The notes under the pieces are model-generated. The model saw only the letters and a list, made by a program, of their open reading frames with translations, had not been told where the DNA came from and did not search any database. A stretch of DNA of 63,358 bases, filler included, from Craspedostauros australis (Eukaryota): NCBI GenBank assembly GCA_030167865.1. It is 8 parts of 8 records of this genome, joined end to end, with 100 filler letters (N's around TTAATTAATTAA, not from the genome) between each part and the next. Parts side by side here need not be neighbours in the genome. Positions count along the whole stretch, not along the records: positions 6,996 to 34,528 come from JALAGF010005725.1; 7 more parts are not named here. One strand, given 5' to 3'. How positions within the stretch are numbered: the stretch's first letter is position 1; the number at the start of each line of letters is the position of its first letter. The position numbers and the translations under genes were made by a program. Of this stretch, positions 3,337 to 34,239 are shown in pieces.

Positions 3337-3991
3337 CCAACCAAGAAAAGAGAACAAGAAAAGGACACACCAAACATGAGTCATCTCGAGTTGTTCGCGT
3401 TTCTGTTCCTGTTCAGGGTGTGTGACTGACGCATCTGTCAGAGTTTTGTGGGTGCAGGGGTATGAGCTCTTCCCACTCCAATAATTGCTCGACTGTTTTG
3501 GGGGTTCTTCACCACTCACCACATGAACGCTGCTTCGTCCGGCGATCGGACATATGTTTTTGTTTTTTCGCGACAAAATGTTTCTATGCTCCACTGTGTT
3601 CGGCAGAACTGTGTTCGATTTCGTGTTGCTCGGAGTGCTGGTGTGCAGTCTTCTCCTTTCGCACTCACGAATCTGGACCCATCATCCAAAGTGCGGCCAC
3701 CGGAGGCGACAGAGAGCCGCATCTTGCGATTGTCTCACGATCTGATGAAGGAATTCATCTGGGCTGGATAACAAATGCAGCGACAGCACTCGTACGAGCA
3801 CTTATGTGTCCGAAGAAGGCACCCGGTGTAACACAACGCCGATGATTTTTCCAACTGCTCACAATTCTGAAGCCCGAGAACCGACAACTCACAAATCGAC
3901 AAGATCAAAGTAACAACGCTGCACCAATCGCAACACAACATAACACAACCACATCTGCAACCAACCCCTCGTTTCAACAACGCATTCCAAC

Positions 3992-4534
3992 ATGAGTAAC
4001 CCATCCGCTCCCTCCGATGCAAACCGCGCCGTCGACGATGACATCGAAGCCGGTACCGCCAACACCATCACCAACGCCAACGCCACTGAGCACGAGATCA
4101 TCCACAAGTCCATCCAAACCAAGTCCTTCATCGAACACATCAAGTACATCGTCGAACTCAAGTCCGACACCGTCTTCTCCACCTGGTACAATGAAAAAGG
4201 CAAGGCAACCAACAACTACACCTTCCAACAGCTCTGGGATGAAGCAGGACACTGCGCTCACCTCATCCGCAACAAGTGGGGTGCCAAGAAAGATGACCGT
4301 GTCGTCCTCTGCTACGACTTTGGACTCCACTTCTTCGCCATGTTCGTGGGATGTCTCCGCGCAGGAGTGACAGCTGTCCTGGTCTACCCTCCCGGACCAC
4401 CGCTCGTCAAGTCTCTCACCAAAATGAACAAGGTCATCGGGGATTGTGCACCAGCACTCATCCTCACCCAAACATCCATCAACATGCTCCGCGCTGCCGA
4501 TCGCGCCAATCCGGCGTCCAAGAGCCGCTCCTTG
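3992..4534 (+). CDS. Fatty acyl-AMP ligase / AMP-binding enzyme, 5' part (truncated by scaffold end)
   Basis: ORF MSNPSAPSD...DRVVLCYDFGLHFFAMFVGCLRAGVTAVLVYPPGPP... Positions 4083-4459 are the reverse complement of 1-377. Confidence 0.75.
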
Positions 4535-4578
4535 NNNNNNNNNNNNNNNNNNNNNNNNNNNNNNNNNNNNNNNNNNNN

Positions 4579-4590
4579 TTAATTAATTAA
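4579..4590. other. Artificial scaffold linker TTAATTAATTAA within N runs (also 6940-6951, 34573-34584, 36525-36536, 45433-45444, 55033-55044, 60951-60962)
   Basis: The same 12-mer, which puts stops in all six frames, appears seven times, always flanked by N runs. Confidence 0.97.
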
Positions 4591-4769
4591 NNNNNNNNNN
4601 NNNNNNNNNNNNNNNNNNNNNNNNNNNNNNNNNNCATCTTCCTCCACATCAACACATGTTCAACATGCACTTGCAATCTGTCCATCCCACACGTCGACAT
4701 GCCAACATTGCAATGACAATGGCTTCTTCTGCTGTTGCAAAACAGAATTGAAGCATGCCTTCTTTCCAG

Positions 4770-6894
4770 TTCTCACAAAAATCAACAGCAGCGCGCTCGA
4801 TCACCTTCCGCCCCAGTGATGGAGAGCATCATCAATGCGAACAACCCATCACACCAACAGCAGCGTGCTCCATCAACTTCCACCCCAGTGACGGACAGCA
4901 TCATCAATGCAAACAACTCACAAAACCAACAGCAGCGCACTCGATCAACTTCCACTTCAGTGATGGGGAGCATCATCAATGCTAACAACTCACCAAACCA
5001 ACAGCACCGTGCTCGATCAACTTCCACTCCAGCGATTGAGAACATCAGCAATGCAAACAACTCACCAAACCAACAGCAGCATGCCCGATCAACTTCCACT
5101 CCAGTGATGGAGAGCATCAGCAATGCGCGCAACCCACCAAACCAACGGCAGCATGCTCAATCAACTTCCACCCCAGCGATGGAGAGCATCAGCAATGCGC
5201 ACAACTCACCAAACCAACAGCACCATGCTCGATCAACTTCCACCCCAGTGACGGACAGCATCATCAATGCGAACAACTCAACAAACCAACGGCACCGTGC
5301 TCGATCAACTTCCACCCCAGTGACGGGCAGCATCATCAACGCAAACAACTCACCAAACCAACATCAGCACACTTGATCAACTTCCACCCCAGCAATGGAG
5401 AGCATCAGCAATGCGAACAACTCACCAAACCAACAGCTGCACACTCGATCAACTTCCACCCCAGTGACAGACAGCATCATCAATGCAAACAACTCATCAA
5501 ACCAACGGCGGCATGCTCGATCAACTTCCACCCCAGCGATGGAGAGCATCATCAATGCAAACAACTCATCAAACCAACGGCAGCGTGCTCAATCAACTTC
5601 CACTCCAGTAATGGACAGCATCAGCAATGCGCGCAACTCACCAAACCAACGGCAGCGTGCTCGATCAACTTCCACTCCAGTGACAGACAGCATCAGCAAT
5701 GCGAGCAACTCGCCAAACCAACGGCAGCGTACTCGATCAACTTCCACCCCAGTGACGGACAGCATCAGCAATGCGCGCAACTCACCAAACCAACGGCAGC
5801 GTGCTCGATCAACTTTCACCCCAGTGACGGACAGCATCAGCAATGCGCGCAACTCACCAAACCAACGGCAGCACATTCGATCAACTTCCACCCCAGTGAC
5901 GGAGAACATCATCGATGCGCGCAACTCACAAAACCAACAGCAGTGCACTCGATCAACTTCCACTTCAGTGATGGGGAGCATCATCAATGCAAACAACTCA
6001 CAAAACCAACAGCAGCATGCTCGATCAACTTCCACTCCAGTAATGGACAGCATCAGCAATGCGCGCAACTCACCAAACCAACGGCAGCGTGCTCGATCAA
6101 CTTCCACTCCAGTGATGGAGAGCATCAGCAATGCAAACAACTCACCAAACCAACAGCAGCATGCTCGATCAACTTCCACCCCAGTGATGGAGAGCATCAT
6201 CAATGCGAACAACTCGCCAAACCAACAGCAGCATGCTCGATCAACTTCCACTCCAGTAATGGACAGCATCAGCAATGCGCGCAACTCACCAAACCAACGG
6301 CAGCGTGCTCGATCAACTTCCACTCCAGTGACGGACAGCATCAGCAATGCAAACAACTCACCAAACCAACGGCAGCGTACTCGATCAACTTCCACTCCAG
6401 TGATGGACAGCATCATCAATGCGCGCAACTCGCCAAACCAACGGCAGCGTGCTCGATCAACTTCCACTCCAGTGACAGACAGCATCAGCAATGCGAACAA
6501 CTCAACAAAGCAACGGCACCATGCTCGATCAACTTCCACTNNNNNNNNNNNNNNNNNNNNNNNNNNNNNNNNNNNNNNNNNNNNNNNNNNNNNNNNNNNN
6601 NNNNNNNNNNNNNNNNNNNNNNNNNNNNNNNNNNNNNNNNNNNNNNNNNNNNNNNNNNNNNNNNNNNNNNNNNNNNNNNNNNNNNNNNNNNNNNNNNNNN
6701 NNNNNNNNNNNNNNNNNNNNNNNNNNNNNNNNNNNNNTGCTCGATCAACTTCCACTCCAGTGACAGACAGCATCAGCAATGCGAACAACTCAACAAAGCA
6801 ACGGCACCATGCTCGATCAACTTCCACTCCAGTGACGGACAGCATCATCAATGCGAACAACTCAACAAAGCAACGGCACCATGCTCGATCAACT
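4770..6894 (+). repeat. 72-bp tandem array (at least ~26 units, interrupted by an N gap), potentially encoding a 24-aa S/T/N/Q-rich repeat
   Basis: Unit ~GCTCGATCAACTTCCACTCCAGTGATGGAGAGCATCAGCAATGCAAACAACTCACCAAACCAACAGCAGCAT = ARSTSTPVMESISNANNSPNQQQH. One in-frame TGA at 5374-5376; possible splice acceptor TTTCCAG ending at 4769. Confidence 0.93.
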
Positions 6895-20537: not shown

Positions 20538-21897
20538 GATGCTGATGCTGACGTGCTATCTGTTCAAATTGTGCGCAACAGACGCAATCACTTGGCAATT
20601 CAGATGATCGCACGGCACAACCGCACGAATGGAACAGTCCGAAACACGCAGCCTCTATTCTGGCACACGCATTCTCATCTGCCATCGCAGAAGCGGTGAG
20701 CCTTTACGCCTATCAACAGCATCGCACCCTTCCACATCCCACAGAGTGCTCTCTTTGCAGAGAGTAATGAAGTGGGCGCGACCAACATTCTATGAGAACT
20801 TCGTTGACTGCGATCAACGCATGCTCGCACCATCTCGCGTTTGGTTGCATGCGCTTGGACCGCGACGAAGGAAAGTGTTGAACGACTGCCGGGAGCGAAG
20901 AACGGCGGGAAGTTTTCATTTCATGAGAAACGTCATATCAAGTACTATATATATGGTATATATAACGTATAGTACCACGATGAGTATCGATTGTTTATTC
21001 GCTCATCTCACGTCATGTCACCCCAAACCCTTGTTGCCACGCAGCGTCACGTCCACGATAGACGAACCGTTGATGTTCGTAAATGTGAATGTCGCTATGA
21101 CATGCCATGGATTAGCGTAATTATGATCGCGGTCTTGGGATAGTCGCTGCAATGTCGATGAAGGTGATCGTTTTGCGAACTGTTGCACATCAAGATGGCG
21201 GAAGAAAAAAGAGACGGTCACAACGAACCGACGAGCGACAAGCACAGACCCGTCGAGGAGGTCCATGGAGGCAAGGTGACTGGTCACCCTTGGCGCGCAA
21301 GAGAAAGAAGATGGCAAGAAGACGGCAATCAGTGATAAAGCCTCACCATTGTGATCGGAGAGTGGGCGAACAGCTGCAGTGTTCAGGGAGAGGAGAAAAG
21401 CTTGCCACAATCCAGCCACGGCATCGCCATCTCTCTCATACCGCTCACCAGTGTGCAAGCAAGAACGGCTTCAACCCATACGGAGTGCGACTGTTACTCC
21501 TCTGCTCTGAGCGTTCCTTGGACTTAATAGTCGTACGGCCCACAGCACCATTGATCATAGAGCAGAGCAGAGCAGAGCAGAGCAGAGTAGTACTGGAACA
21601 GACGGCCCAAGCGAAGCTGCAGAGACGAAAGCTCCCTCCAGAGAGGCTACTTACGAACACGACCTGCGAACACCAACACAAACACCAATACTAATACCAA
21701 TAGTAGTAGGCTCGCGCGGATGCTGCGTGATCGATTGCCTTCCGAACTGCATCATCCACATCGCAGCACTCTCCGCCTTTGATTCATTCTATTTCCATTC
21801 CAGAGAGAGAGAGAGAGAGAGAGCAGGCTTGTGAACAACATCACAATACCATCAACACAATCAATAGGAGCAAGATCGATACCATTGTTGAGAGAAG

Positions 21898-24800
21898 ATG
21901 GTGGAACACGACACCCTCAGTTCAGCGGCAACACCATTGACTGCCGCAATGGCAACATCATCCACAGCACCGTTGGCATCTCCTGCGCACCGCAGACCGC
22001 GTCCATCTTCCTCCAAGATGCTCAATAGCAACAGCAATGGCAACGGCAATGACTGGCAATCCACTGTTTCCTCCATTCGGACTGCGACGACGGCTCCAAC
22101 GCAAAGAACGGAGGATACCTCCCAAGTCATGTCCAGAGCAACTGCTGCTTCCAACTCAGTCAACCTGGGAGGCAACGGAAGCCCCCGCTTCCACCATCGA
22201 ACGGTTCGAGGGTCTTCCACGAGCACCTCGTCTCATATGCCATCGCAACACTCGCAACAACCAAGGAGAGCCTACGACCGCATGAAGAGCAACGCCAGCA
22301 ACGACAGCGAACGCGCCTCCGGAGACAACTCGTTCCGCACCTCCGCCTCATCAGCGAGGAGGATGCACACGTCCGGCGTGGACTTTTACGACACCGGCTA
22401 CACGAAAGAGGAATGCAACGCCGAGGAGCCGCCCATCACCAAGTTCCAGCACAAGGACGAGGCTCTGGCCTCCTTTCTGCAGCGCACGCAGGAGTATGGG
22501 ACGTTGCATGCTCTCAAGGATCAGATTCTCTTTCGCGATGTTAACACTGTTGACAATGTTGACAATGTTAACAGTGTTAACAGTAAGCAATCAAGTGCAG
22601 TGGTTGATTCGGAAGCGCCAACGTCCACTCCATCAGTGCAGCAACAACCACAACAGCCACATCCACAGCCACAGAAACAACAGAACATTGCTTCTTCGTC
22701 AGCCTCGCAGAACACATCGGATGCCGACCTCCTGCCAGGCGTCCTGGTCTGGGGTCTCAGCGGCACGGGCAAATCCAAGCTCGTCCAAACCTTCTGCAAG
22801 GACGTGCAGGACCAAACCAACACGAACCAGGTCTACCTCCTGCAGGGACAGTACGACGAGAACACGAGCGTCAATGTCAGCAGCGCCAGCACGATGCGCA
22901 GCACCGCGACGCGTCATCGCACCAAGAAACATCAGCAGTCGGATCCCTTCTCCGCCATCATCCAGGCCTTCACGGATTTTGCGCATCAGCTCGGCAAGGA
23001 TGAGGTCGATCTCGAGCGGATTCGTCGTGTCGTGCGTGAGACGATGGGGGAGAGCACCGCGGTCGGTTCGGCTTATGGCGGCAGTCAGCAGCAACGTGGA
23101 GGATCGACGGTCAGGTCCGCGTCGCCGTCCAGGCGGGAGTGTGATGCCAACACCACGGTCGGGAGCACCACCAGCGCCACGGATATGATGGATCCATTGC
23201 ATCATCATCGCAATCAACAACAACAATCACAGTCACAGTCACAATCACATAACAACAACAACAAGCACATTCCGCAACAGGAGGACTCCGAATATGAGGA
23301 CACCCTCACGGCCTTGGAGGATTACCATTACGACCGCGAGATCGTGTCGGCCCTCACATCCCTCGTCCCATCGCTCTCCATCATCTTCTCCAATCGTGCC
23401 GGCGGAAGCAGCATGGCCGACAACAGCAGCCTGCGCAGCGGCTCCATCCGATCCTCCGGCACCATCGTCTCCAACGAACAATCATTCTCGCATCTATCCT
23501 CGCCCGAAACCGCAAACCGACGTGCCAACAAGACCATGTTCGGGATCGAAAGTCGTTCCGCCAATGCCTGGAATCGGTTGCAGTACGTCTTCCTGCAGTT
23601 CGTCAAGGCCATCTCCACGAAGGAACGACCCATCATCCTATTTCTGGATAATCTCCAGTGGGCATCGTCGCTCAGTCTAGAGCTCTTGGCCAGTCTACTG
23701 TCCGATCCGGAGTTGAAGCATTTTCTATTCATAGGCGTCATCCGTGAGGAGCATTCGGCATCGGCCATGTCCACGACGTCCTCCTTGTCGCAACCGCGAG
23801 GTGTCAGCCATTCGCGTACAGCAACCGCTCGCAACAGCAACAATGACAATGAGATCCTGCCGTACACTGGTGCTGGTTCCAACAACAACAGCAATGACAA
23901 CCTCAGTGCGGACGACTCTCACACCCCCATCCAACAGTTCCTGGATCGGTTGGATGAAACTGGCAAACCCCTGGAGCAACTCACCATGCACAACCTCTCC
24001 TTAGCGGGAACCGTCCAGCTCGTCGCGGACATCATCGAACGCACGCAGGAGGATTGCGAATCATTGACGCAGCAGATCTACGCCAAGACGAAGGGCAACA
24101 TCCTCTTCACCATGCAGGCGCTCGAGGAGCTCGTGCGACATCACGTATTGATGTACAGCCGCATATCATTCCAGTGGGAATGGAATATCCCCTCAACGAA
24201 CTCACTCTTGTCGGATCGCAATGCATCGTCCAACAATCCCAACAACATGATCCTCATTCAGCAGCGATCCACGACCTTGCCCATCAGCGAACTGCCCATC
24301 AGCGACAACGTCCTCAAATCAATCACGTCCAAGGTCAAGAACCTGCCGCAGCCATTGCAAAAGGCCTTGGCCGTCGCATCCTACATCCGCTCCAACTTTG
24401 ATGTCCGCATCTTGGAATACATCCTGCGCAAGGAGACGCTCTACGGGTCCGACACGATGGGTTTGCTCACCACGAGCCCGCCCTCCAAGTCTTTGTCGCC
24501 GTCGTCGCAACTCAACGCGAGAGGCAACGTCGACACCAACACCACTCCGCCCCTGATGCAGTGGTTGGAAGAGGCCGTGCTCGAAGGGTTGCTCTTGAAT
24601 CCCGTCGGTGGTACCAAGTACCGCTTCGCGCATGGTCGCATCCATCAGGCCGCGTCGAGTCTCGTGCCATTCGGTGAAGAGCGTGATAAGCTGCGCGCCA
24701 GGATTGGCAAATGTTTGTTCCAGCTGTGGAAGTGCGATTTTGATGATATGAACGACATGGATATTGTGAATCAAGATGGCGGCGGTAACAACCACAACGG

Positions 24801-26937
24801 CGACGCAGCAGCAGCGACGAAGAGACGGCAGGAATTGCAAGCCCTGCAGGAATTGGTCGAACTGGAAGGCCTGCTGTTTGTTGCAGCGGATCATCTCAAC
24901 TGCGCTCCCAGCCGCGATCATCTATTCTCGCTGACGGTCAATCTGGATGTCGGCGAGAAGGCCTTGCAGATGGCCGCCATCGCACCAGCCTCGACCTACC
25001 TGCATCGTGCCGGCATGTACTTCCGAAAGCTGCGCGCACCATGGCAGGACCATTACGACATGTGCCTGCGATTGTGCCGCGCGAGGTGCGCCGTGGAACT
25101 GTCGCTGGGACACATCGGAATGGGCCGCGAGATTGGACAGGAGCTGTTCGAGAATGCACAATCTCTCGATGACAAGCTGCCGTCCTACCTGGCCATCATG
25201 CAGGCGCTGGGACGCCAGGACCAGCACATGGATTCGAGGTCCATGGCGCGGTCCGTCGCACAGCTCATGGGCATCTTCCCAAAGCGCAAATGGTCGCTGA
25301 TGTTCCACATCGCGAGGGACCTACGATACCTCAAGCGCTATCTACGACGTCACACCATCGAGGAAATCGTCATGCACAAGCCCATCCTGAACAACGAACG
25401 CATCGAAATGGAATTCAAGATCATGAGCGAATTCGCCATCCGATCATTCCTCACGAAGGGCATCGTGGAATGGCTGGTCGCGACCTGCAAGCTCTTGCGG
25501 GGTTCCATCATCCATGGCCCAGTCGCGGAAGCCGCAGGATTGTGGCCGGCACTTGGACTGTTCTTCCTGTTCAACGGCGATCTGGAGCTCGGGGTGAAGT
25601 GCGCGGACATCGCCCATGGCCTCATGAGCCGCCTCCATGACAACAGCTGCGCCGGCTGGGTGTACTTCCTCACCACCAACTACATCTACGCCTTCACGTA
25701 CCCTGTCTCCGACATCATCCGCAACTTCCAGAAAGGCTACATCGCCGGCATGGAAGCCGGTGAATTCGAAATTGGCTTCGTGAACTGGCATCTGTGCAAC
25801 ATCACGGCGTTCTGCACGGGGTACGAACTGGGCCCGCTCATCAAAACGTTCGAATCGGCCAAGCGCCATTCGTCCATCTACCGCGTGGAGTCCATGTCGT
25901 CGATCTCCATCGAGTACTTGTACCTGATGAGGACACTGACAGGAGAGCTGCCGTTGGATTGGGAGGACGTTGCCAGGGTGGCGCGCATCGACATCAGCCC
26001 GGACTCGTTCGATCCGTCCGACACGTACTCCATGACCTCGATTTGCAACACGCGCATGATCCTCGCCATCTTCTTCTTCAAGTTCGAATGGGCCGAGGCC
26101 ATCTGCGAGAAGTTCTGGGTCCTCACGTCTCATGAGAAGTCGCACATCGCCATCACGCAACGCTCGCTGCAGACGGGGCTGATCGCCGCGGGTCGATACC
26201 GCGAAACCAAGCGACGTCGGTATCTGAAACGTCTGCGACAGATGATCGTCACCCTGAAGAACGTGAAGAAGCTGAAGGGCGCCAAGGTCACGCACCAGAG
26301 CCGCATCCTCGAGGCCGAAGAACTGTCGTTGCGAAAGAGCAAGGACATCCGCGGCGTGCAGAATGCGTACGACGAGGCCATCAAGGCGGCCGCGGAAGCT
26401 GGTCACCTGCACGAGGCAGCTCTGACGGCAGAGCTTGCAGGCGAATTCTTTCTGCGCTCCAAGAGGAACACGTACGTCCAGGACTACTTCGTGCAGGCTC
26501 TTGGCTTTTACGAAGGATGGGGTGCTCACAGCAAGGCCAACGATCTGCGCCAGCGTCACGCCTTGTACACGGCATCCAGCAAGTCGGACAAATTGAATAT
26601 GCGGGCCTCGTCGCACTCGATGCTCATCCCGAATACAGTCCAGGACATGTCGACATCGCGTCGAACGACGGTGGATCTCATCTCCGTCTTCACTCCACCA
26701 CAATCCATGGTCGGATCGAGCGTCTCCGAGAAGGGATCGCGCATGCAGGGTGATACCGACCAGCAGCAGCAGCAGCACAAACCGCGCCATCTGGCACAAC
26801 GACACCATCAGACGCAAACGCAGCAGCCGCAGCAGAACATGCGTCATAATCATCATCAGCAACATGAGATGCAGCAGAAGCATGACGAAGTCGATGCGGA
26901 CGATGACGATGTATCTGTGCTCACGGGTGGATCGTAA
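21898..26937 (+). CDS. Large STAND-class / AAA_16 ATPase with a TPR-like helical C-terminal region, 1679 aa
   Basis: Walker A GLSGTGKS, Walker B-like IILFLDNLQWAS, KTKGNILF, YRFAHGRIHQAA, C-terminal AELAGEFF...YEGWGAHSKA. This resembles COG3899-type predicted ATPases. Single long ORF. Confidence 0.8.
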   Translation: MVEHDTLSSAATPLTAAMATSSTAPLASPAHRRPRPSSSKMLNSNSNGNGNDWQSTVSSIRTATTAPTQRTEDTSQVMSRATAASNSVNLGGNGSPRFHHRTVRGSSTSTSSHMPSQHSQQPRRAYDRMKSNASNDSERASGDNSFRTSASSARRMHTSGVDFYDTGYTKEECNAEEPPITKFQHKDEALASFLQRTQEYGTLHALKDQILFRDVNTVDNVDNVNSVNSKQSSAVVDSEAPTSTPSVQQQPQQPHPQPQKQQNIASSSASQNTSDADLLPGVLVWGLSGTGKSKLVQTFCKDVQDQTNTNQVYLLQGQYDENTSVNVSSASTMRSTATRHRTKKHQQSDPFSAIIQAFTDFAHQLGKDEVDLERIRRVVRETMGESTAVGSAYGGSQQQRGGSTVRSASPSRRECDANTTVGSTTSATDMMDPLHHHRNQQQQSQSQSQSHNNNNKHIPQQEDSEYEDTLTALEDYHYDREIVSALTSLVPSLSIIFSNRAGGSSMADNSSLRSGSIRSSGTIVSNEQSFSHLSSPETANRRANKTMFGIESRSANAWNRLQYVFLQFVKAISTKERPIILFLDNLQWASSLSLELLASLLSDPELKHFLFIGVIREEHSASAMSTTSSLSQPRGVSHSRTATARNSNNDNEILPYTGAGSNNNSNDNLSADDSHTPIQQFLDRLDETGKPLEQLTMHNLSLAGTVQLVADIIERTQEDCESLTQQIYAKTKGNILFTMQALEELVRHHVLMYSRISFQWEWNIPSTNSLLSDRNASSNNPNNMILIQQRSTTLPISELPISDNVLKSITSKVKNLPQPLQKALAVASYIRSNFDVRILEYILRKETLYGSDTMGLLTTSPPSKSLSPSSQLNARGNVDTNTTPPLMQWLEEAVLEGLLLNPVGGTKYRFAHGRIHQAASSLVPFGEERDKLRARIGKCLFQLWKCDFDDMNDMDIVNQDGGGNNHNGDAAAATKRRQELQALQELVELEGLLFVAADHLNCAPSRDHLFSLTVNLDVGEKALQMAAIAPASTYLHRAGMYFRKLRAPWQDHYDMCLRLCRARCAVELSLGHIGMGREIGQELFENAQSLDDKLPSYLAIMQALGRQDQHMDSRSMARSVAQLMGIFPKRKWSLMFHIARDLRYLKRYLRRHTIEEIVMHKPILNNERIEMEFKIMSEFAIRSFLTKGIVEWLVATCKLLRGSIIHGPVAEAAGLWPALGLFFLFNGDLELGVKCADIAHGLMSRLHDNSCAGWVYFLTTNYIYAFTYPVSDIIRNFQKGYIAGMEAGEFEIGFVNWHLCNITAFCTGYELGPLIKTFESAKRHSSIYRVESMSSISIEYLYLMRTLTGELPLDWEDVARVARIDISPDSFDPSDTYSMTSICNTRMILAIFFFKFEWAEAICEKFWVLTSHEKSHIAITQRSLQTGLIAAGRYRETKRRRYLKRLRQMIVTLKNVKKLKGAKVTHQSRILEAEELSLRKSKDIRGVQNAYDEAIKAAAEAGHLHEAALTAELAGEFFLRSKRNTYVQDYFVQALGFYEGWGAHSKANDLRQRHALYTASSKSDKLNMRASSHSMLIPNTVQDMSTSRRTTVDLISVFTPPQSMVGSSVSEKGSRMQGDTDQQQQQHKPRHLAQRHHQTQTQQPQQNMRHNHHQQHEMQQKHDEVDADDDDVSVLTGGS

Positions 26938-26961
26938 AATCAAATTCGATTTGGGCATCAT

Positions 26962-27337
26962 TCTTGTAATAGTGTGAAAGGCTGATTTATGATTACATGA
27001 CTTGCGTCTTCTACTGCAGTGCGAGATTGAACGAGGGCATGCATGCATCGTGCGAAAGCACGAGGTGCAGGCTCTCAGTTTTAGTAGAGCGGTGATCGAA
27101 CAGGATGACCGATGACTCTGACGTCGTCGATCTACTGACCGAACGAAGGATGACGATGCTTGAAGATGTTGCATCATCGTCCGAGGGTCTGAAGCTTCAA
27201 TGAACATGGCAGAAGTCGTAGGATGATGGGAGAGTTGTGTTTTTCGGCGCGAACTTGTTGTTGGCGCCATTTGTTGATTGGTATCTTCCACCGAGTCCCC
27301 AGTCACGGATACCGAGACGACTCGATGGACTCCAACA
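26962..27337 (-). repeat. 3' LTR (376 bp)
   Basis: Matches 33577-33952 with 2 substitutions seen on manual comparison. Confidence 0.97.
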
Positions 27338-27405: not shown

Positions 27406-30400
27406 TTACCAACCCATGAGGAGCTGGCGGGCCTCAGCAAACTTGACGCGAGCGAGGGCCTTGGTGAGGATGTCGGCCAATTGCTTGTCTGTGGACACAT
27501 GCTTGATTTCGACGGCACCCTTGCGGAGATGGGAACGGAACCAGTGGTACTTCACAGCGATGTGCTTGGAGCGTGGAGTCATTCTGGCTGGCTCAGTGGT
27601 GGCGAGCGCGATGGCTGCCTGATTGTCCTCGTGTATGGTAGTGAGGTCGGAGAGTTCGGGCGAGCGTATGCCGTAGCACGACGTGATCTCACGCAAAGTC
27701 TCACGGACAGGGACCAGCGTGCGCATAGCCGTAGAGAGCGCGATGTATTCGGACTCCTGAGTGCAGACGGCGATCTCCGTTTGCAACTTGGACTTCCAGA
27801 TGATTGGCATGTTGCCGAGCATGATGACGAATCCTGTGCGAGACTTGACGCACGCTGGATCCTGATTGTCTTCTGCGTTCCACAACCCTGCGAAGTCTGC
27901 GTCGACGTAGCAGTCCAAGGCGCGGTGCGATGATGGCTTGATGAAGAGGCCTTCTTGCGATGTGCCGAGCAAGTAGCGTCCGATGCGTTTGAGGGCCTGT
28001 TCGTGTGGCTGCTTGGGATCGTTGCAAAAACGAGCACACTGATTGATGGCGAAGGAGCACTCAGGGCGGGTGTTTGTGCCCAAGTACATCATCATCCCCA
28101 AGACGGAGCGGTAGTTGAACTCGCCAGAGCATGGCAAAGCATCCGCCAACTTGCCCAGCGTTTGATCAGCTGGTGTGGGCCGAGTGGAGGCATTCTCGAG
28201 TCCGAGGGCTTCGATGACGCGTTGCGTGAGGCCAGGCTGCGACAGCTTGAGAGTGCCGGCGCTGTTGCGCTCAATCTGGATTCCGAGATACGCCGAGAGG
28301 TCGCCTTCTCGAGTCAAGTCGAAGCCCAAAGCTTCCAGCTTGTCGATGAGAGAGGAGACGGATTCCGCGGTCTTGCCGCAGATGATGGCATCGTCGACGT
28401 ACAGGACCAACACAATGCCATCCTTGAGAAAGAGGCAGGGGTCCTTGGCGGAGACATGGAAGCCGAACTGGTCGGAGAGGAGTGCGGCACGAAGATGGTC
28501 GTACCAGAGCCGAGGAGCGCGCCTGTCGCCGTAGAGACTCTTGTTGATTTGGAAGATCTTGCCGCGAAGCTGCGGGTTCGAGTTGAACGGGCCAGGCGGG
28601 AGCTCCATGTAGATTGGTGAGGGGAGGGAGGACTGGACGAACGCGTTTTTGAAGTCGATGGATTGCGTGTGCAGTTTGAACTCCACTGTGAGAGCGAAGA
28701 GGAGCCGGATGGTGCTCCATTCGACAACAGGAGAGAACGTTTTGTTCTTGTCTCGCCCTGTTTCGAACTGGCGGTCGCCACGGACGCAGAGGCGTGCCTT
28801 CAGCTTCATGATGGAGTCGTCGGGGAAACGCTTGCGCTTGAAGACCCAAGTTGATGGTATGATCTCGTGGGTGCCTGCTGAGGATCGGGGAACCAGGTCG
28901 AAGGTACCTTTGTCCTGTAGCTGGTCGATCTCAGTGTAGATGGCTTTCACCCAGGTGGCACGTTCGTTGGCATCAGAGCACCGGAGCACGTCGCGAAGGG
29001 TAGGGTTGTCGGCGTCGTGCACGCGAACTCCCAGCATGCGAGGATCCATGTCGGTCACTTCTTGAGAGTAGGGATCGATGGCGGTATGCATGAGAGCGTG
29101 GAAGCGAGGGTCGATGGGTGTGGTGGTATCCCAGTCAAGGTTCTGAAGGAGGGACATGGGAGTGGTGAACTGTGGTCCGCGGCCGAGGGACAGGTTGACT
29201 TCCGGCACGAACTCGAGGGTGTCGGAGTTGACGGTGTCGTCTCCGTACTTGCGGCGATTGCGGCGCTGTCGACGGCCTCGCCCTAGTTGAGGTGCGGGCG
29301 GGTCCGGAGGTGCGGCAGGTTCGACGGGAGCTCCGTCGTCATCGAGGATCTCGATGCGGGGAGGTTCCGGAGCTGCGGCTTCGGCAGGGTTGCCATTGGA
29401 TTCAGACTCAGAGTCTGAGTCATCCGCGAAGACACGAATCCCCTCGCCCTCAATGAGAACACCAGAAGGAGAGGAAACCGGGGGCGGACTGCGGGTCGGG
29501 CGGCGGAAGCGGACCGGAGACGGCGGGATCGTGATCGGCGAGCACGACATCGCGGGAGGTGCGAAAGAGGTGCTCCCAGATGGGTTGCAGATCGGTGGAA
29601 CCGACGGATGAGACGGTGGAGAAGTCGTTGTCATAGACAACATGGTATTGACGAGACACCCAGCCGGTCTGGATGCTGCGAACTTGCCCCACAGACGAAG
29701 AGTGCTCGGGGTCGAAACCGGCGAACTGGCCGAGACGAGAGCGCGGCTCCCAGCGCGGGATGGACTTGGAGGCTTGAAGGCGGGGATCGAGGACGTAGGC
29801 CGGGCAGCCCCAGACCTTTGCGCGGTCAAGGTACCGAGTGCCGATGGCGGAGGCTGTGAAGGCATCCATGGGAGAGACACGCGAGACGCGGCGAGGAGTA
29901 TGGTTGTACAGCCAGGCGGCGTATGACATGGCCATGGGCCACAGGTCGAGGTTGGACTCCTTCGGCCAGTGCAGCTGTGCGTGGACAAGCATGGCACGAA
30001 CGCGGAGGGTCACAGTGAGGATGGCACGTTCAGCAGCTCCGTTCTGATGATGAGCGCCGACGGCACCAAACGTGAGATGCTGATCGGCGGAGAGGCTGCT
30101 GCGCCAGGCGGCGGAGTCAAACACGCCACGATCGATGTGGTAGTGTGAGACGGCGACGCCGTTGGTGCGAGCGAAGTGTTCGAATCGGTCCTTGGACAGG
30201 ATGGTGTCGCTGGCGCCGAAAGAGACTTGATGGTGGACAGCAACGAAACCAGTGTGCGCATCGACGAAGATCGTACCACCCACATAGCGCTGGGTCTGCG
30301 GTTCGCGCCCAAACGTGTTGAGGCGGCGACCACGCAGGCTGCACTCAAACTGGTCGACAGCGACGTGTTGGCCAGGGGCAGTGGTGACGGGAGCGATGGA

Positions 30401-31983
30401 TCGGATCTGATCAGGGTGAGCAGAGCGATGATTCGGCAGAGGCTGTCAACGACCTTTCGCAAATTCACATGTGGCACACTTTGGGAGTGAGCATGTTTTT
30501 GCGGATGGCACGGGCGGGCGAATGTGTCCGGTTGGAGGTGCCGGCGCGTTTTCGTCCAGGCCAACATGATCGAGCGAGGCGGGTGTGCGGTACATTTGTT
30601 GTACGTGTGCCATGCCGAGATGACCGAAGCGATGATGGTCACGCAGGAGGGCCTTCTGGGCAGAGGACAGATTGGTGTTGGCCTCAGAGAGGACCTGCAC
30701 GCCAGTTGGGGACGTAGCAGCAGTGTTGCAACCATGGCCGTAGGCACTGTGGTTGCTGCACGGAGGTCGATGAGAGGATGATGACTTGTTGACAGGCCGA
30801 CCCAGAGCCGTGGGGATGTTGGACTGAGGGTGGACTGGAACCTTGATGGTTTCACCGGAAGACGTGAGCATCCAAAACTCTCCGGCATTCCCACCATAAG
30901 TGGTTGTGTCCGAGGACTTCGTCGTGAGGGAGTGGTCTTGCGGCGAGATGAGGCGGGCATTACTGCCAGGGATGAGGTGACCAGGCATTGTGACGCGCTG
31001 GAAAGTCCCATCCACGGACATGATGTCGTAGGAGACTGTGCCGACTGCTGTTATGCCCAGCGATCCACTTGCTGTGTGGACCTTGCCATACGAACCGTAG
31101 ACGGGATCGTTGACAAAATAGTCAATGTCGAAGGTCATCGCGAAAGAACAACCGGTGTCCATGATTATGGGCACGAGATCGCTTTGCGAACACCGCGGGG
31201 AGTGATACGCGTTGTGGATGAGCTGTGACATGAATTGGTGATCCATGTGGAACGACGAAGCTTGAAGGGCCTTCGGGAACACGCTCAACGGACGGTCGAT
31301 TTTCAAATCGGCGAGGCTGGCCGGAGTCAATTTCGCGTCGGGCGAGGAGCGGCGCCGAAACAGATCGTGAGGGACAACACCGTGGGAAAAACCAGGTGTG
31401 ATGGAACGCGGGAAATCAACCGTTGAGCACCCAAGCTCGCCACCTCGCCCTTGGATCACCAGGTCATGGAACTCCCGATGGAAGCCAGAGAGGTGAAGCA
31501 GAGACGGAGGGGCAGAGCCACCGGACCGGAACGGTCCAAAGTCGGAGCACGGTAGATCCCATTTCGCGCCAGAAGCGAAGTTGGGAAGGGTGGAGAGGGA
31601 TGGCAGCATCACTGGCACGACTTCGCGGCCGACGGAGCGGATGCGAGAGTGCGCCAGGAGCTGAAGAGAGCTTGCCGGAAGCATCAGCCAGGAGAGGACC
31701 ATGAGGTGCCGAGGCAGACCCATGCCTGCCCGAGAGGCTTGGTGGATGGTGGACGGAGGGACGGAACGGAGCGGCGGATCCGGAGGATAGCGCAGACCCC
31801 GAAGGAAGAGAGTCATTGTGGGTGGAGCAGCACCGAAGGCAGCGACGACGGCCCACAGCAACGCAGATGCGCAGCACTGCAGGAGCCAGCCGACGAAGTC
31901 AGCGGTGTCCTGGAGCAGGAGCCACGCCACGAGGGCGATGGAGAGGAGAGGACTTATGCCGAGGACGACGGCCCTTGAAAAAC
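27406..31983 (-). pseudogene. pol: Copia pol (protease, integrase, RT, RNase H) with an in-frame TGA at 30446-30448 and a frameshift near 29490
   Basis: PR IIMDTGCSF; HHCC HHRFGH...CATC; IN AVDQF / HIDRG / QNGAAERAI; RT LYVDD; RNase H CYVDADFAG, HEDNQAAI; ends LLMGW*. Split across three ORF-track entries. Confidence 0.92.
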
Positions 31984-33372
31984 CGTCGACTCATCATCAG
32001 CCATGCGAACGCGAAGAACCGGAGCGGGAGTGGTCCCGACGGACGCCTTGTCGGCGGTACCGGCGGAGGACTCGGCCTTGCGCTCAGCGCGGGAGCGCTT
32101 GAACTCGGCGAACCACTTGGCGTGGCCGTCGGTGAGATGGTTGCCCCAGCGTTGGCAGTGCTTGTCGGAGCACCAGTGTTCCTGGCCGCGTCCGTCTTTG
32201 CGATTGCGAGAGTTGGACTCGCCTGCTTTCGGAGGAGTGCGGTCGACAGGATTGCCGTTGCGATCCTTGGTGGACTTGCCGCGCCCGCTGCCGGAGGAAC
32301 CAGAGGAGGACGTGGTGTTGAGGGCGGAGCCGGCGACTTTGCGGCGGCGGATGTTCCAAGTCGACTTGGAGACAGCGAGGTTGTAGATGGCAAGGGCCTT
32401 CGCCAACACGCTTTCCCAAGTGTCGAAATCCGAGGTGAGTCCGGAATCGGCTTGGACCTTGAGGGAGTGCCACTGAGACTTGAATGCGTAGTTCGTCGTC
32501 GTCAGGAACACGTCGAAGAGCACCTCATGCATGTTGTGCGGGATGCCCATCTTGGAGGCCTTGAGGCGCAAGACTGCAGACTTGAGGTGGCTGCACACCA
32601 ATGCCAGGTTCTCACCCTCCACCTTGTTCACCTTGAAATCGCGAATGCGGTCGAAAATCTCGCGGGCGGTTCCGGTGTTGGTGTGGGCGATGTGTTCCAC
32701 GATGAGGAAGAGGATGAGCGGACCCCCTTGTTCGTCGATGGGGATCTCATTCAGGCGCACGTTGATGATGGCCTGAAGCTCCTCGGTGCAGGAGTTGAGA
32801 ATGAAGGCTTGAGAGGTGTGGATGTCGGTGGCGATCTCTTCGTGGCTACCGTAGTGGTGGTAGGACCAGTTGGAGTCGCGCACCTGGGTTTCGGTGAACC
32901 CAAGGAAGTCGGTGAAGAAGCTGCGGACGCTGTCGAGGTCGAACGATGCGTTTCCGGAGCTGTCAACCGTTGGACGGGGAAGGATGTTAAAGACATCCAA
33001 CATGTCGAAAGAGGAGAGGTGAGTCTCGACTTGCTTGAGGAGCATGCCGAGGTCGTGGTTCTTGGAGAGGAAGTCGTTGGCCTGCACGTTGGAGGAGAGG
33101 TCTTGTACCTCGAACTGCAGCTTCGGCAACGGCTTGGTGATGTTGTCCAAGAGGACAAAGCGGTCCTTGGCGCTCAGCTTGGCGCGTTGGTCCTTGGAGA
33201 GGCGCACGGGACGGGCAGCGTCCGCAGTGCGGCGAGTGGTCTGAACAGCGAAAGACATGCTTGGTGTGACCGAGAGAGAAGGGATGGATGATGCGCGAGA
33301 CGATTGCGATGGGGATCGTGGCGGAGGGAAGAGAGGAAGAGTGTCTGCGACGGACGGGTCTTCGGATTGCAT
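31954..33372 (-). CDS. gag: Copia gag, 472 aa
   Basis: ORF downstream of the PBS (MQSEDPSV...) with a C-terminal zinc-knuckle-like HWCSDKHCQRWGNHLTDGH. Confidence 0.8.
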   Translation of the reverse strand: MQSEDPSVADTLPLFPPPRSPSQSSRASSIPSLSVTPSMSFAVQTTRRTADAARPVRLSKDQRAKLSAKDRFVLLDNITKPLPKLQFEVQDLSSNVQANDFLSKNHDLGMLLKQVETHLSSFDMLDVFNILPRPTVDSSGNASFDLDSVRSFFTDFLGFTETQVRDSNWSYHHYGSHEEIATDIHTSQAFILNSCTEELQAIINVRLNEIPIDEQGGPLILFLIVEHIAHTNTGTAREIFDRIRDFKVNKVEGENLALVCSHLKSAVLRLKASKMGIPHNMHEVLFDVFLTTTNYAFKSQWHSLKVQADSGLTSDFDTWESVLAKALAIYNLAVSKSTWNIRRRKVAGSALNTTSSSGSSGSGRGKSTKDRNGNPVDRTPPKAGESNSRNRKDGRGQEHWCSDKHCQRWGNHLTDGHAKWFAEFKRSRAERKAESSAGTADKASVGTTPAPVLRVRMADDESTVFQGPSSSA

Positions 33373-33576: not shown

Positions 33577-33952
33577 TCTTGTAATAGTGTGAAAGGCTGA
33601 TTTATGATTACATGACTTGCGTCTTCTACTGCAGTGCGAGATTGAACGAGGGCATGCATGCATCGTGCGAAAGCACGAGGTGCAGGCTCTCAGTTTTAGT
33701 AGAGCAGTGATCGAACAGGATGACCGATGACTCTGACGTCGTCGATCTGCTGACCGAACGAAGGATGACGATGCTTGAAGATGTTGCATCATCGTCCGAG
33801 GGTCTGAAGCTTCAATGAACATGGCAGAAGTCGTAGGATGATGGGAGAGTTGTGTTTTTCGGCGCGAACTTGTTGTTGGCGCCATTTGTTGATTGGTATC
33901 TTCCACCGAGTCCCCAGTCACGGATACCGAGACGACTCGATGGACTCCAACA
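33577..33952 (-). repeat. 5' LTR (376 bp)
   Basis: Element strand reads TGTTGGAGTCC...ATTACAAGA; flanked by the TSD ATCAT. Confidence 0.97.
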
Positions 33953-34239
33953 ATCATGCTGCGTTCTGTTATACATATGATATACAGTAGCTTATAATCG
34001 CTAGGGGTCTCACGAGCACGGATGGATGGAACTGGACGATCGCAAACCAAGTGGTAGGTTGGAGTGCGCCACGCTGCCCCATGATGCGAGCTCGACAGGA
34101 GGAAACGGGGACAACTACGTTCGTTGGGCTAAGATCGTAATACTCTGCAAAAATCATCGCGGCGCTTTCCACAACAAGAAAGCGTGAATTTGTTATTTTG
34201 TATTGGCGACTGCGCTGCAGACGTTGAGAAATCGTGTGA

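Follow-up and report, generated by a model that had tools for sequence, protein, structure and literature searches.

How does a Ty1/copia retrotransposon make its Pol protein when pol is not in the reading frame of gag? The question is raised by an element on the minus strand, at 33951-26962, of a 63,358-nt stretch of DNA from Craspedostauros australis (assembly GCA_030167865.1; eight parts joined end to end, filler included), hereafter the window. The gag open reading frame (ORF) of this element is overlapped at its end by a pol ORF in the -1 frame, and an earlier reading of the same DNA (the original prediction) had proposed that the two are joined by a programmed ribosomal frameshift by -1 (-1 PRF) on the heptamer G_GUU_UUU. 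Our analysis supports this reading through a conserved frame layout, an in-phase heptamer, a local peak of conservation and a switch of coding frame, and we put the probability that classical -1 programmed slippage at G_GUU_UUU links gag and pol at roughly 70%, judging from sequence comparison. According to this proposal, most ribosomes would end at the gag stop and release Gag, and a minority would slip back by 1 nt on the U-rich heptamer, continue in the -1 frame and produce Gag-Pol. From the comparisons below we infer the occurrence of the slip, its efficiency and its stimulator; candidates for the last would be a weak conserved hairpin 8 nt downstream, an adjacent stop codon (in the relatives) or a factor acting in trans.

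The gag/pol overlap and its conservation

The end of gag and the start of the -1 frame are arranged as follows.

31954-33372, minus strand: gag ORF, 472 codons, from the first ATG after the long terminal repeat (LTR), at 33372, to the TAA at 31956-31954
31957-31990, minus strand: overlap of gag and the -1 frame, 34 nt (about 11 codons), bounded 5' by three TGA codons of the -1 frame and 3' by the gag TAA
31978-31984, minus strand: proposed -1 shift site G_GUU_UUU, with GUU in the P site and UUU in the A site, aligning in phase with G_GGU_UUU of two related loci (L001 and L002)

The start codon of gag was placed from the lengths of its relatives. Its C-terminal codons read Thr-Val-Phe-Gln-Gly-Pro-Ser-Ser-Ser-Ala-stop, which confirms the minus-strand sequence and the gag end quoted in the original prediction. 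Three-frame translation showed three consecutive TGA codons in the -1 frame followed by Val-Asp-Gly-Phe; the frame opens at 31990, and between the last TGA and the heptamer's GGT there are two codons. The original prediction had described just such a -1 frame for pol, closed by three TGA codons two codons before the heptamer, and a short overlap holding G_GTT_TTT in phase, which it gave as about 12 codons. The heptamer stands in the X_XXY_YYZ phase and is the sole in-phase slippery candidate in the 34-nt overlap. Although G_GUU_UUU fails the identity of the three X positions, it is documented as a shift site elsewhere, and the G_GGU_UUU of the relatives is canonical. As a word, the heptamer occurs in the window at chance frequency (5 found versus 4.83 expected). 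The non-random part is its place and phase in the 34-nt overlap, together with its conservation in relatives.

The DNA relatives L001 and L002 came from one metagenome scan in which a 4-sequence gag alignment served as the probe, and their gag products are 31-32% identical to that of the window. L001 has gag in frame 2 (3576-5150) and, from 5075 onward, pol in frame 1. The gag of L002 (757-2328) lies in frame 0, and its pol reads in frame 2 and stays open for 1196 codons through protease (PR), integrase (IN) and the start of reverse transcriptase (RT). Thus a downstream ORF in the -1 frame overlaps the upstream ORF in the window and in both related loci obtained, by 76 nt in L001 and 97 nt in L002. 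Both relatives end gag in Ser-Gly-Phe-stop, encoded as G_GGU_UUU_UAA, and this G_GGU_UUU is the only canonical in-phase heptamer in either overlap. MAFFT aligned the window site with theirs without gaps and in phase, GUU opposite GGU and UUU opposite UUU; the next codon of the window, CAA, aligned with the first UAA of the relatives, and the gag TAA of the window with their second in-frame UAA, seven codons later. The -1 phase and the heptamer position are therefore kept in both loci (2/2), which amount to effectively one independent lineage, and this is the opposite of the finding that would undo the original prediction, namely intact relatives with gag and pol in one frame. Although the gag products have diverged to only about 31% identity, the shift site has kept its place and phase. 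No relatives were found in viral contigs or in genome contigs searched with gag and RT alignments. As far as these loci represent it, the layout of the lineage appears to be one of separate, overlapping gag and pol ORFs with pol in the -1 frame.

Conservation and substitution patterns also change at the site. When L001 and L002 were compared, the 60-nt segment from -20 to +39 around the heptamer was the most conserved of 38 segments (0.90, as compared with 0.48-0.88 for the others). Differences at codon positions 1, 2 and 3 numbered 58, 41 and 159 in gag, counted in the gag frame, and 59, 33 and 147 downstream, counted in the -1 frame; the third-position bias in the -1 frame, a mark of coding selection, is present by +45 to +245 (24, 14 and 35). 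The first AUG of the -1 ORF in the window lies at 31816, a position that is not conserved among the elements. Similarity in the -1 frame extends upstream of this AUG, to 31885 in tblastn with L002 pol and to ORF residue 33 in BLASTP against the nearest pol relative, P0272; in BLASTP against L002 pol, significant similarity begins only at ORF residue 161. The conservation peak, the third-position bias and the similarity upstream of AUG 31816 argue for translation of the -1 frame from near the heptamer rather than from an internal AUG, and argue so more weakly for the first 30 codons or so.

A wider sample of proteins was consistent with this layout. The gag product carries the knuckle DRTPPK.GE ... 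HWC..C..RWGNH..GH, which differs from the classic CX2CX4HX4C, and matched no Pfam family at E <= 0.01. A phmmer search of 1.84 billion representatives gave 633 gag relatives at E <= 0.001, and the statistics that follow cover the 150 matches listed. Their median length is 489 amino acids (aa), and five are longer than 800 aa; in all of the long ones, the match to gag either sits at or close to the C-terminus or has repeats after it. None of the 150 showed similarity to the PR-IN or RT pieces of the window. P0137 (1782 aa), a gag-pol fusion by its length, was rejected as such, since it consists of gag plus repeats and lacks pol. The gag ORFs of these relatives end about 68 aa past the knuckle, often in Phe: the terminal residue is exactly Phe in 35 (background 3.85%, binomial p = 7e-18), and Phe is within the last three residues in 54. 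Among the 30 best matches, 10 end in Phe and 18 have it in the last three. The residue before a terminal Phe is variable (N 9, S 5, D 5, G 4, H 4, P 4, R 2, E 1 and L 1), and has an NNU codon in 34 of the 35 cases (background 79.8%, p = 0.004). This pattern, read from proteins, is consistent with a common signal in which a U run (NNU_UUU) directly precedes the stop.

One possible extension of these data is that the gag family, which lacks a Pfam entry, shares across the whole lineage a minimal, structure-poor signal of NNU_UUU plus stop, on which the tRNA-Phe alone would slip by -1. A slow stop codon, or a host factor on the C/U-rich tract that follows the site in all three elements, might help the slip, and the G_GUU_UUU_CAA of the window would derive from such a signal by loss of the stop next to it. 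We put this forward tentatively and think it rather doubtful. If true, a structure-poor -1 mechanism would join the single ORFs, +1 shifts and RNA isoforms for which the Ty1/copia superfamily is known.

On the pol side, the 240 RT relatives listed are mostly of pol-only length; in their longer class, 88 of 120 listed measure between 1500 and 1700 aa. Among 14 longer proteins examined, 9 have the classic CX2CX4HX4C knuckle and none has the RWGxH knuckle of the present gag family. Single-ORF relatives therefore exist, but with a different gag type. No longer homologous protein of the PR-IN ORF was found at E <= 0.001 among 8000 candidates, which is weak evidence.

Weighing frameshifting against other explanations

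The original prediction had placed a hairpin and a long-range pairing 3' of the heptamer. Neither folding nor alignment gave a strong stimulatory structure. No stable RNA structure was predicted 5-9 nt downstream in the window, L001 or L002 (z from -1.32 to +0.92), and the folds downstream of the heptamer were no more stable than those of shuffled sequences: for 78 nt, z was -0.67 in the window, -1.32 in L001 and +0.92 in L002, and for 128 nt, -0.80, -0.80 and +0.52. The predicted inverted repeat GCCG-N7-CGGC is present 5 nt downstream, but it is not the register that co-varies with the relatives, and the AGGGC/GCCCU pairing found neither comparative nor energetic support. RNAalifold, run on an ungapped 45-nt alignment of the window, L001 and L002, proposed another structure.

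31958-31969, minus strand: small hairpin of 4 bp with a 4-nt loop, 8 nt past the heptamer, in the same alignment columns in L001 and L002

All 12 cells of this hairpin are paired, and 3 of its 4 pairs are compensatory, with both bases replaced between the window and the relatives; in slid controls, 25-50% of cells pair. We regard it as a candidate stimulator and not as a finding. An outer helix from the same run, pairing the heptamer with a downstream UAAG(C/U)CC, was rejected, as its sole changed column pair is a U-U mismatch in the window.

Several observations weigh against classical slippage at this site. The heptamer of the window is non-canonical, and the P-site GUU would have to re-pair on GGU; the codon that follows is CAA, as compared with a stop in the relatives. 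The 85 nt downstream fold no more stably in the window than shuffles do (z = -0.49), the covariation of the small hairpin was reached by 20 of 500 shuffles, and the energy of this hairpin is only -3.9 (window) to -5.0 kcal/mol. For about the first 30 codons past the site, protein similarity to L002 could not be demonstrated by BLASTP or tblastn. Since L001 and L002 share one metagenome and about 75% of their DNA sequence, they provide about one independent comparison, and the Phe-terminal pattern is a protein-level one. One of the 240 RT relatives listed, P0285 (1969 aa, a diatom gene model), fuses this gag type to pol; the fusion may represent a true single ORF or result from an intron placed by the gene model. 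Finally, G_GUU_UUU gave less than 1% shifting in a TMEV (Theiler's murine encephalomyelitis virus) reporter without the viral protein, according to the part of PMC4524249 used here.

Because the copy is damaged elsewhere in pol, it is tempting to regard the frame change as one more defect, that is, a 1-nt indel of this copy, or a misassembled T5 run, in an element whose gag-pol is normally a single ORF. A nonsense codon in integrase and a second frame break beside a C5 run (see below) would be in keeping with this, as would the draft state of the assembly (30 N runs, 1325 bases, across the window, none of them inside the element) and the long single ORFs of relatives further removed, whose gag is of the classic CCHC type (9 of the 14 long proteins mentioned above). 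However, an accident confined to this copy does not account for the same -1 layout at the homologous site in both L001 and L002, for the absence of fusions to pol among the 150 listed gag relatives and the mostly pol-only lengths of the listed pol relatives, or for gag ORFs that end about 68 aa past the knuckle, often in Phe; we consider it very improbable. An alternative hypothesis is that the heptamer is incidental and Pol is made without slippage, from the internal AUG at 31816, by termination-reinitiation or from a separate or spliced RNA. The lack of a strong stimulatory structure and the late onset of significant BLASTP similarity to L002 pol (residue 161) would suit this alternative, and several Ty1/copia elements set Gag against Pol by RNA isoforms, as described in the sections consulted of PMC5580714. 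Nevertheless, the -1 ORFs of all three elements overlap gag and are open from the heptamer on, their first AUG is at a non-conserved position, and weak similarity and third-position bias (+45 to +245) appear upstream of the first AUGs; moreover, no AUG adjoins the gag stop for reinitiation, and the heptamer region is the conservation peak. We therefore judge translation without slippage quite unlikely.

It is also conceivable that the -1 shift takes place at the U run in a non-classical manner, either by a single tRNA-Phe slipping on U_UUU_U, promoted by the stop or by a protein, or by polymerase stuttering on the T5 run. A variable residue before Phe with an NNU codon in 34 of 35 cases agrees better with a U run and a stop than with a fixed X_XXY, in L001 and L002 a stop immediately follows the heptamer, G_GUU_UUU is familiar from protein-dependent sites, and C/U-rich tracts lie past the site in all three elements. 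However, the NNU argument comes from protein sequences, the site in L001 and L002 is a tandem one of fully canonical form, and the window has no adjacent stop. In addition, a T5 run is possibly too short for transcriptional slippage. We consider a non-classical shift unlikely, and prefer classical tandem slippage at the heptamer as set out at the beginning.

Comparison with known recoding systems

Programmed -1 frameshifting between gag and pol is textbook knowledge for retroviruses and many Ty3/gypsy elements, in which an X_XXY_YYZ site is followed by a 3' structure. The present site resembles these in having pol in the -1 frame over the gag end with an in-phase U-rich heptamer, and a minor fraction of Gag-Pol would be expected here too. 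It differs from them in its Ty1/copia host, with the order PR-IN-RT-ribonuclease H (RH), in that no stable stem-loop or pseudoknot is predicted, only the 4-bp hairpin, and in that the gag stop of L001 and L002 follows the heptamer directly. The proposed mechanism is thus that of classical gag-pol -1 frameshifting, and the unusual part is the host superfamily. Ty1/copia elements, according to what is reported of the 2003 survey of Gao et al., are mostly single ORFs.

Within the superfamily, according to the text used of PMC5580714, Ty1 relies on frameshifting and Tca2 on a stop codon, and copia, BARE and EVD employ splicing or RNA isoforms. Our element shares with these the superfamily and the same need for an excess of Gag over Pol, and is unlike them in that the direction is -1, rather than the +1 of Ty1, and that there is no single gag-pol ORF; no sign of splicing was met, in an analysis that made no search aimed at it. 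It resembles the CoDi Ty1/copia elements of diatoms (Maumus et al. 2009, PMC2806351, as far as its text was available) in the PR-IN-RT-RH order and in its young LTR pair; that text describes no shift site, direction or signal for CoDi elements. Maumus et al. also report that stress induces these elements. In the literature that we searched, no shift site of diatom-type copia elements was described.

The heptamer itself is identical to the shift sites of cardioviruses (2B*) and arteriviruses (nsp2TF), and on this point the original prediction agrees with the portion of PMC4524249 consulted. As described there, the viral sites need a viral protein bound to a downstream element; the relatives of our element, in contrast, use G_GGU_UUU, and the heptamer is all that the window has in common with the viral sites. 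Since the same heptamer needs a bound protein in cardioviruses and arteriviruses, the efficiency of the shift in the window may be low or factor-dependent.

The recoding strategies of Ty1/copia would be extended by a -1 site conserved in a widespread lineage of diatom-type copia elements. For annotation it would mean that a frame change between gag and pol is not a defect, and that gag may be expected to end in Phe-stop. It would also offer a compact, apparently structure-poor shift cassette for diatoms, where recoding is little known.

The pol region, the element and its surroundings

The remaining features of the element are listed below from its 5' to its 3' end.

33952-33956, minus strand: target-site duplication ATGAT on the 5' side; the same 5 nt directly flanks both LTR ends
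33577-33951, minus strand: 5' LTR, 375 nt, 99.47% identical to the 3' LTR (2 mismatches)
29453-31990, minus strand: pol part 1 in the -1 frame (pre-protease, protease, integrase), interrupted by an in-frame TGA at 30448-30446
31159-31145, minus strand: protease motif DTGCS, within pol part 1
27409-30009, minus strand: pol part 2 (RT-RNase H), read in the gag frame, with RVT_2 at residues 370-614 (E 3.6e-41)
29199-29501, minus strand: interval within which pol returns to the gag frame (second frame break), in the linker between integrase and RT; judged by eye, at about 29440-29500, beside a C5 run
26962-27336, minus strand: 3' LTR, 375 nt, from the LTR pair comparison
26957-26961, minus strand: target-site duplication ATGAT on the 3' side, adjoining the 3' LTR end

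The element is thus a full-length LTR retrotransposon, with paired 375-nt LTRs and a 5-bp duplication. Its PR-IN-RT-RH order and RVT_2 match assign it to Ty1/copia; the protease carries DTGCS, the integrase aligns to L002 and the RT is of the copia type. An SH3_retrovirus match on the element fell under the cut-off (22 versus 27 bits). The named RT relatives among the matches listed, at 42-50% identity, come from Fragilaria crotonensis, Cyclotella meneghiniana and an MMETSP transcript, and the nearest named relatives are accordingly diatom proteins. No further copy of the element was found within the window, as none of 586 tblastn matches fell outside it.

The original prediction was right about the -1-frame pol but left unmentioned that this pol is interrupted twice further downstream. 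The in-frame TGA at 30448-30446 lies inside integrase, just past the zinc-binding C..C motif, at a position that is Arg in L002. The second interruption lies in the integrase-RT linker, which is poorly conserved and in L002 has no frame break. Since L002 pol is uninterrupted, both interruptions are peculiar to the copy or family and not part of a strategy, and the second frame break would seem to be a defect or an assembly error rather than a second recoding site. With a nonsense codon and a second frame break in pol, the copy cannot make a complete Pol. The copia element is young, a recent insertion, yet a pol-defective copy.

Between the shift site and the protease lie 150-270 residues of hydrophobic or basic character. 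This pre-protease region holds a motif, [FY]P..W[MV][IV]LS..ML, in the window, L002, P0272, P0190, P0219, P0248 and P0162; the copy in the window reads P..LMVLS..ML (31714-31676, minus strand).

The LTR termini are TGTTGG...ACAAGA (33951-33946 and 26967-26962) instead of the usual TG...CA, and the boundaries were set by the 5-bp duplication. The sequence right after the 5' LTR (33576-33560, minus strand) translates as Gly-Tyr-Glu-Pro, and the same four residues occur in the N-terminal read-through extensions of the gag relatives P0017 and P0026; the primer-binding region is therefore conserved across the lineage. The complement of this sequence presumably resembles the anticodon loop of initiator tRNA-Met. 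Drosophila copia is primed by a half-tRNA of initiator tRNA-Met.

A host ORF of 1681 codons with an AAA_16 domain (E 7e-20) runs on the plus strand from 21892 to 26937 and stops about 20 nt from the element, which is in the opposite orientation. The insertion site is probably the 3' untranslated region of this AAA_16 gene.

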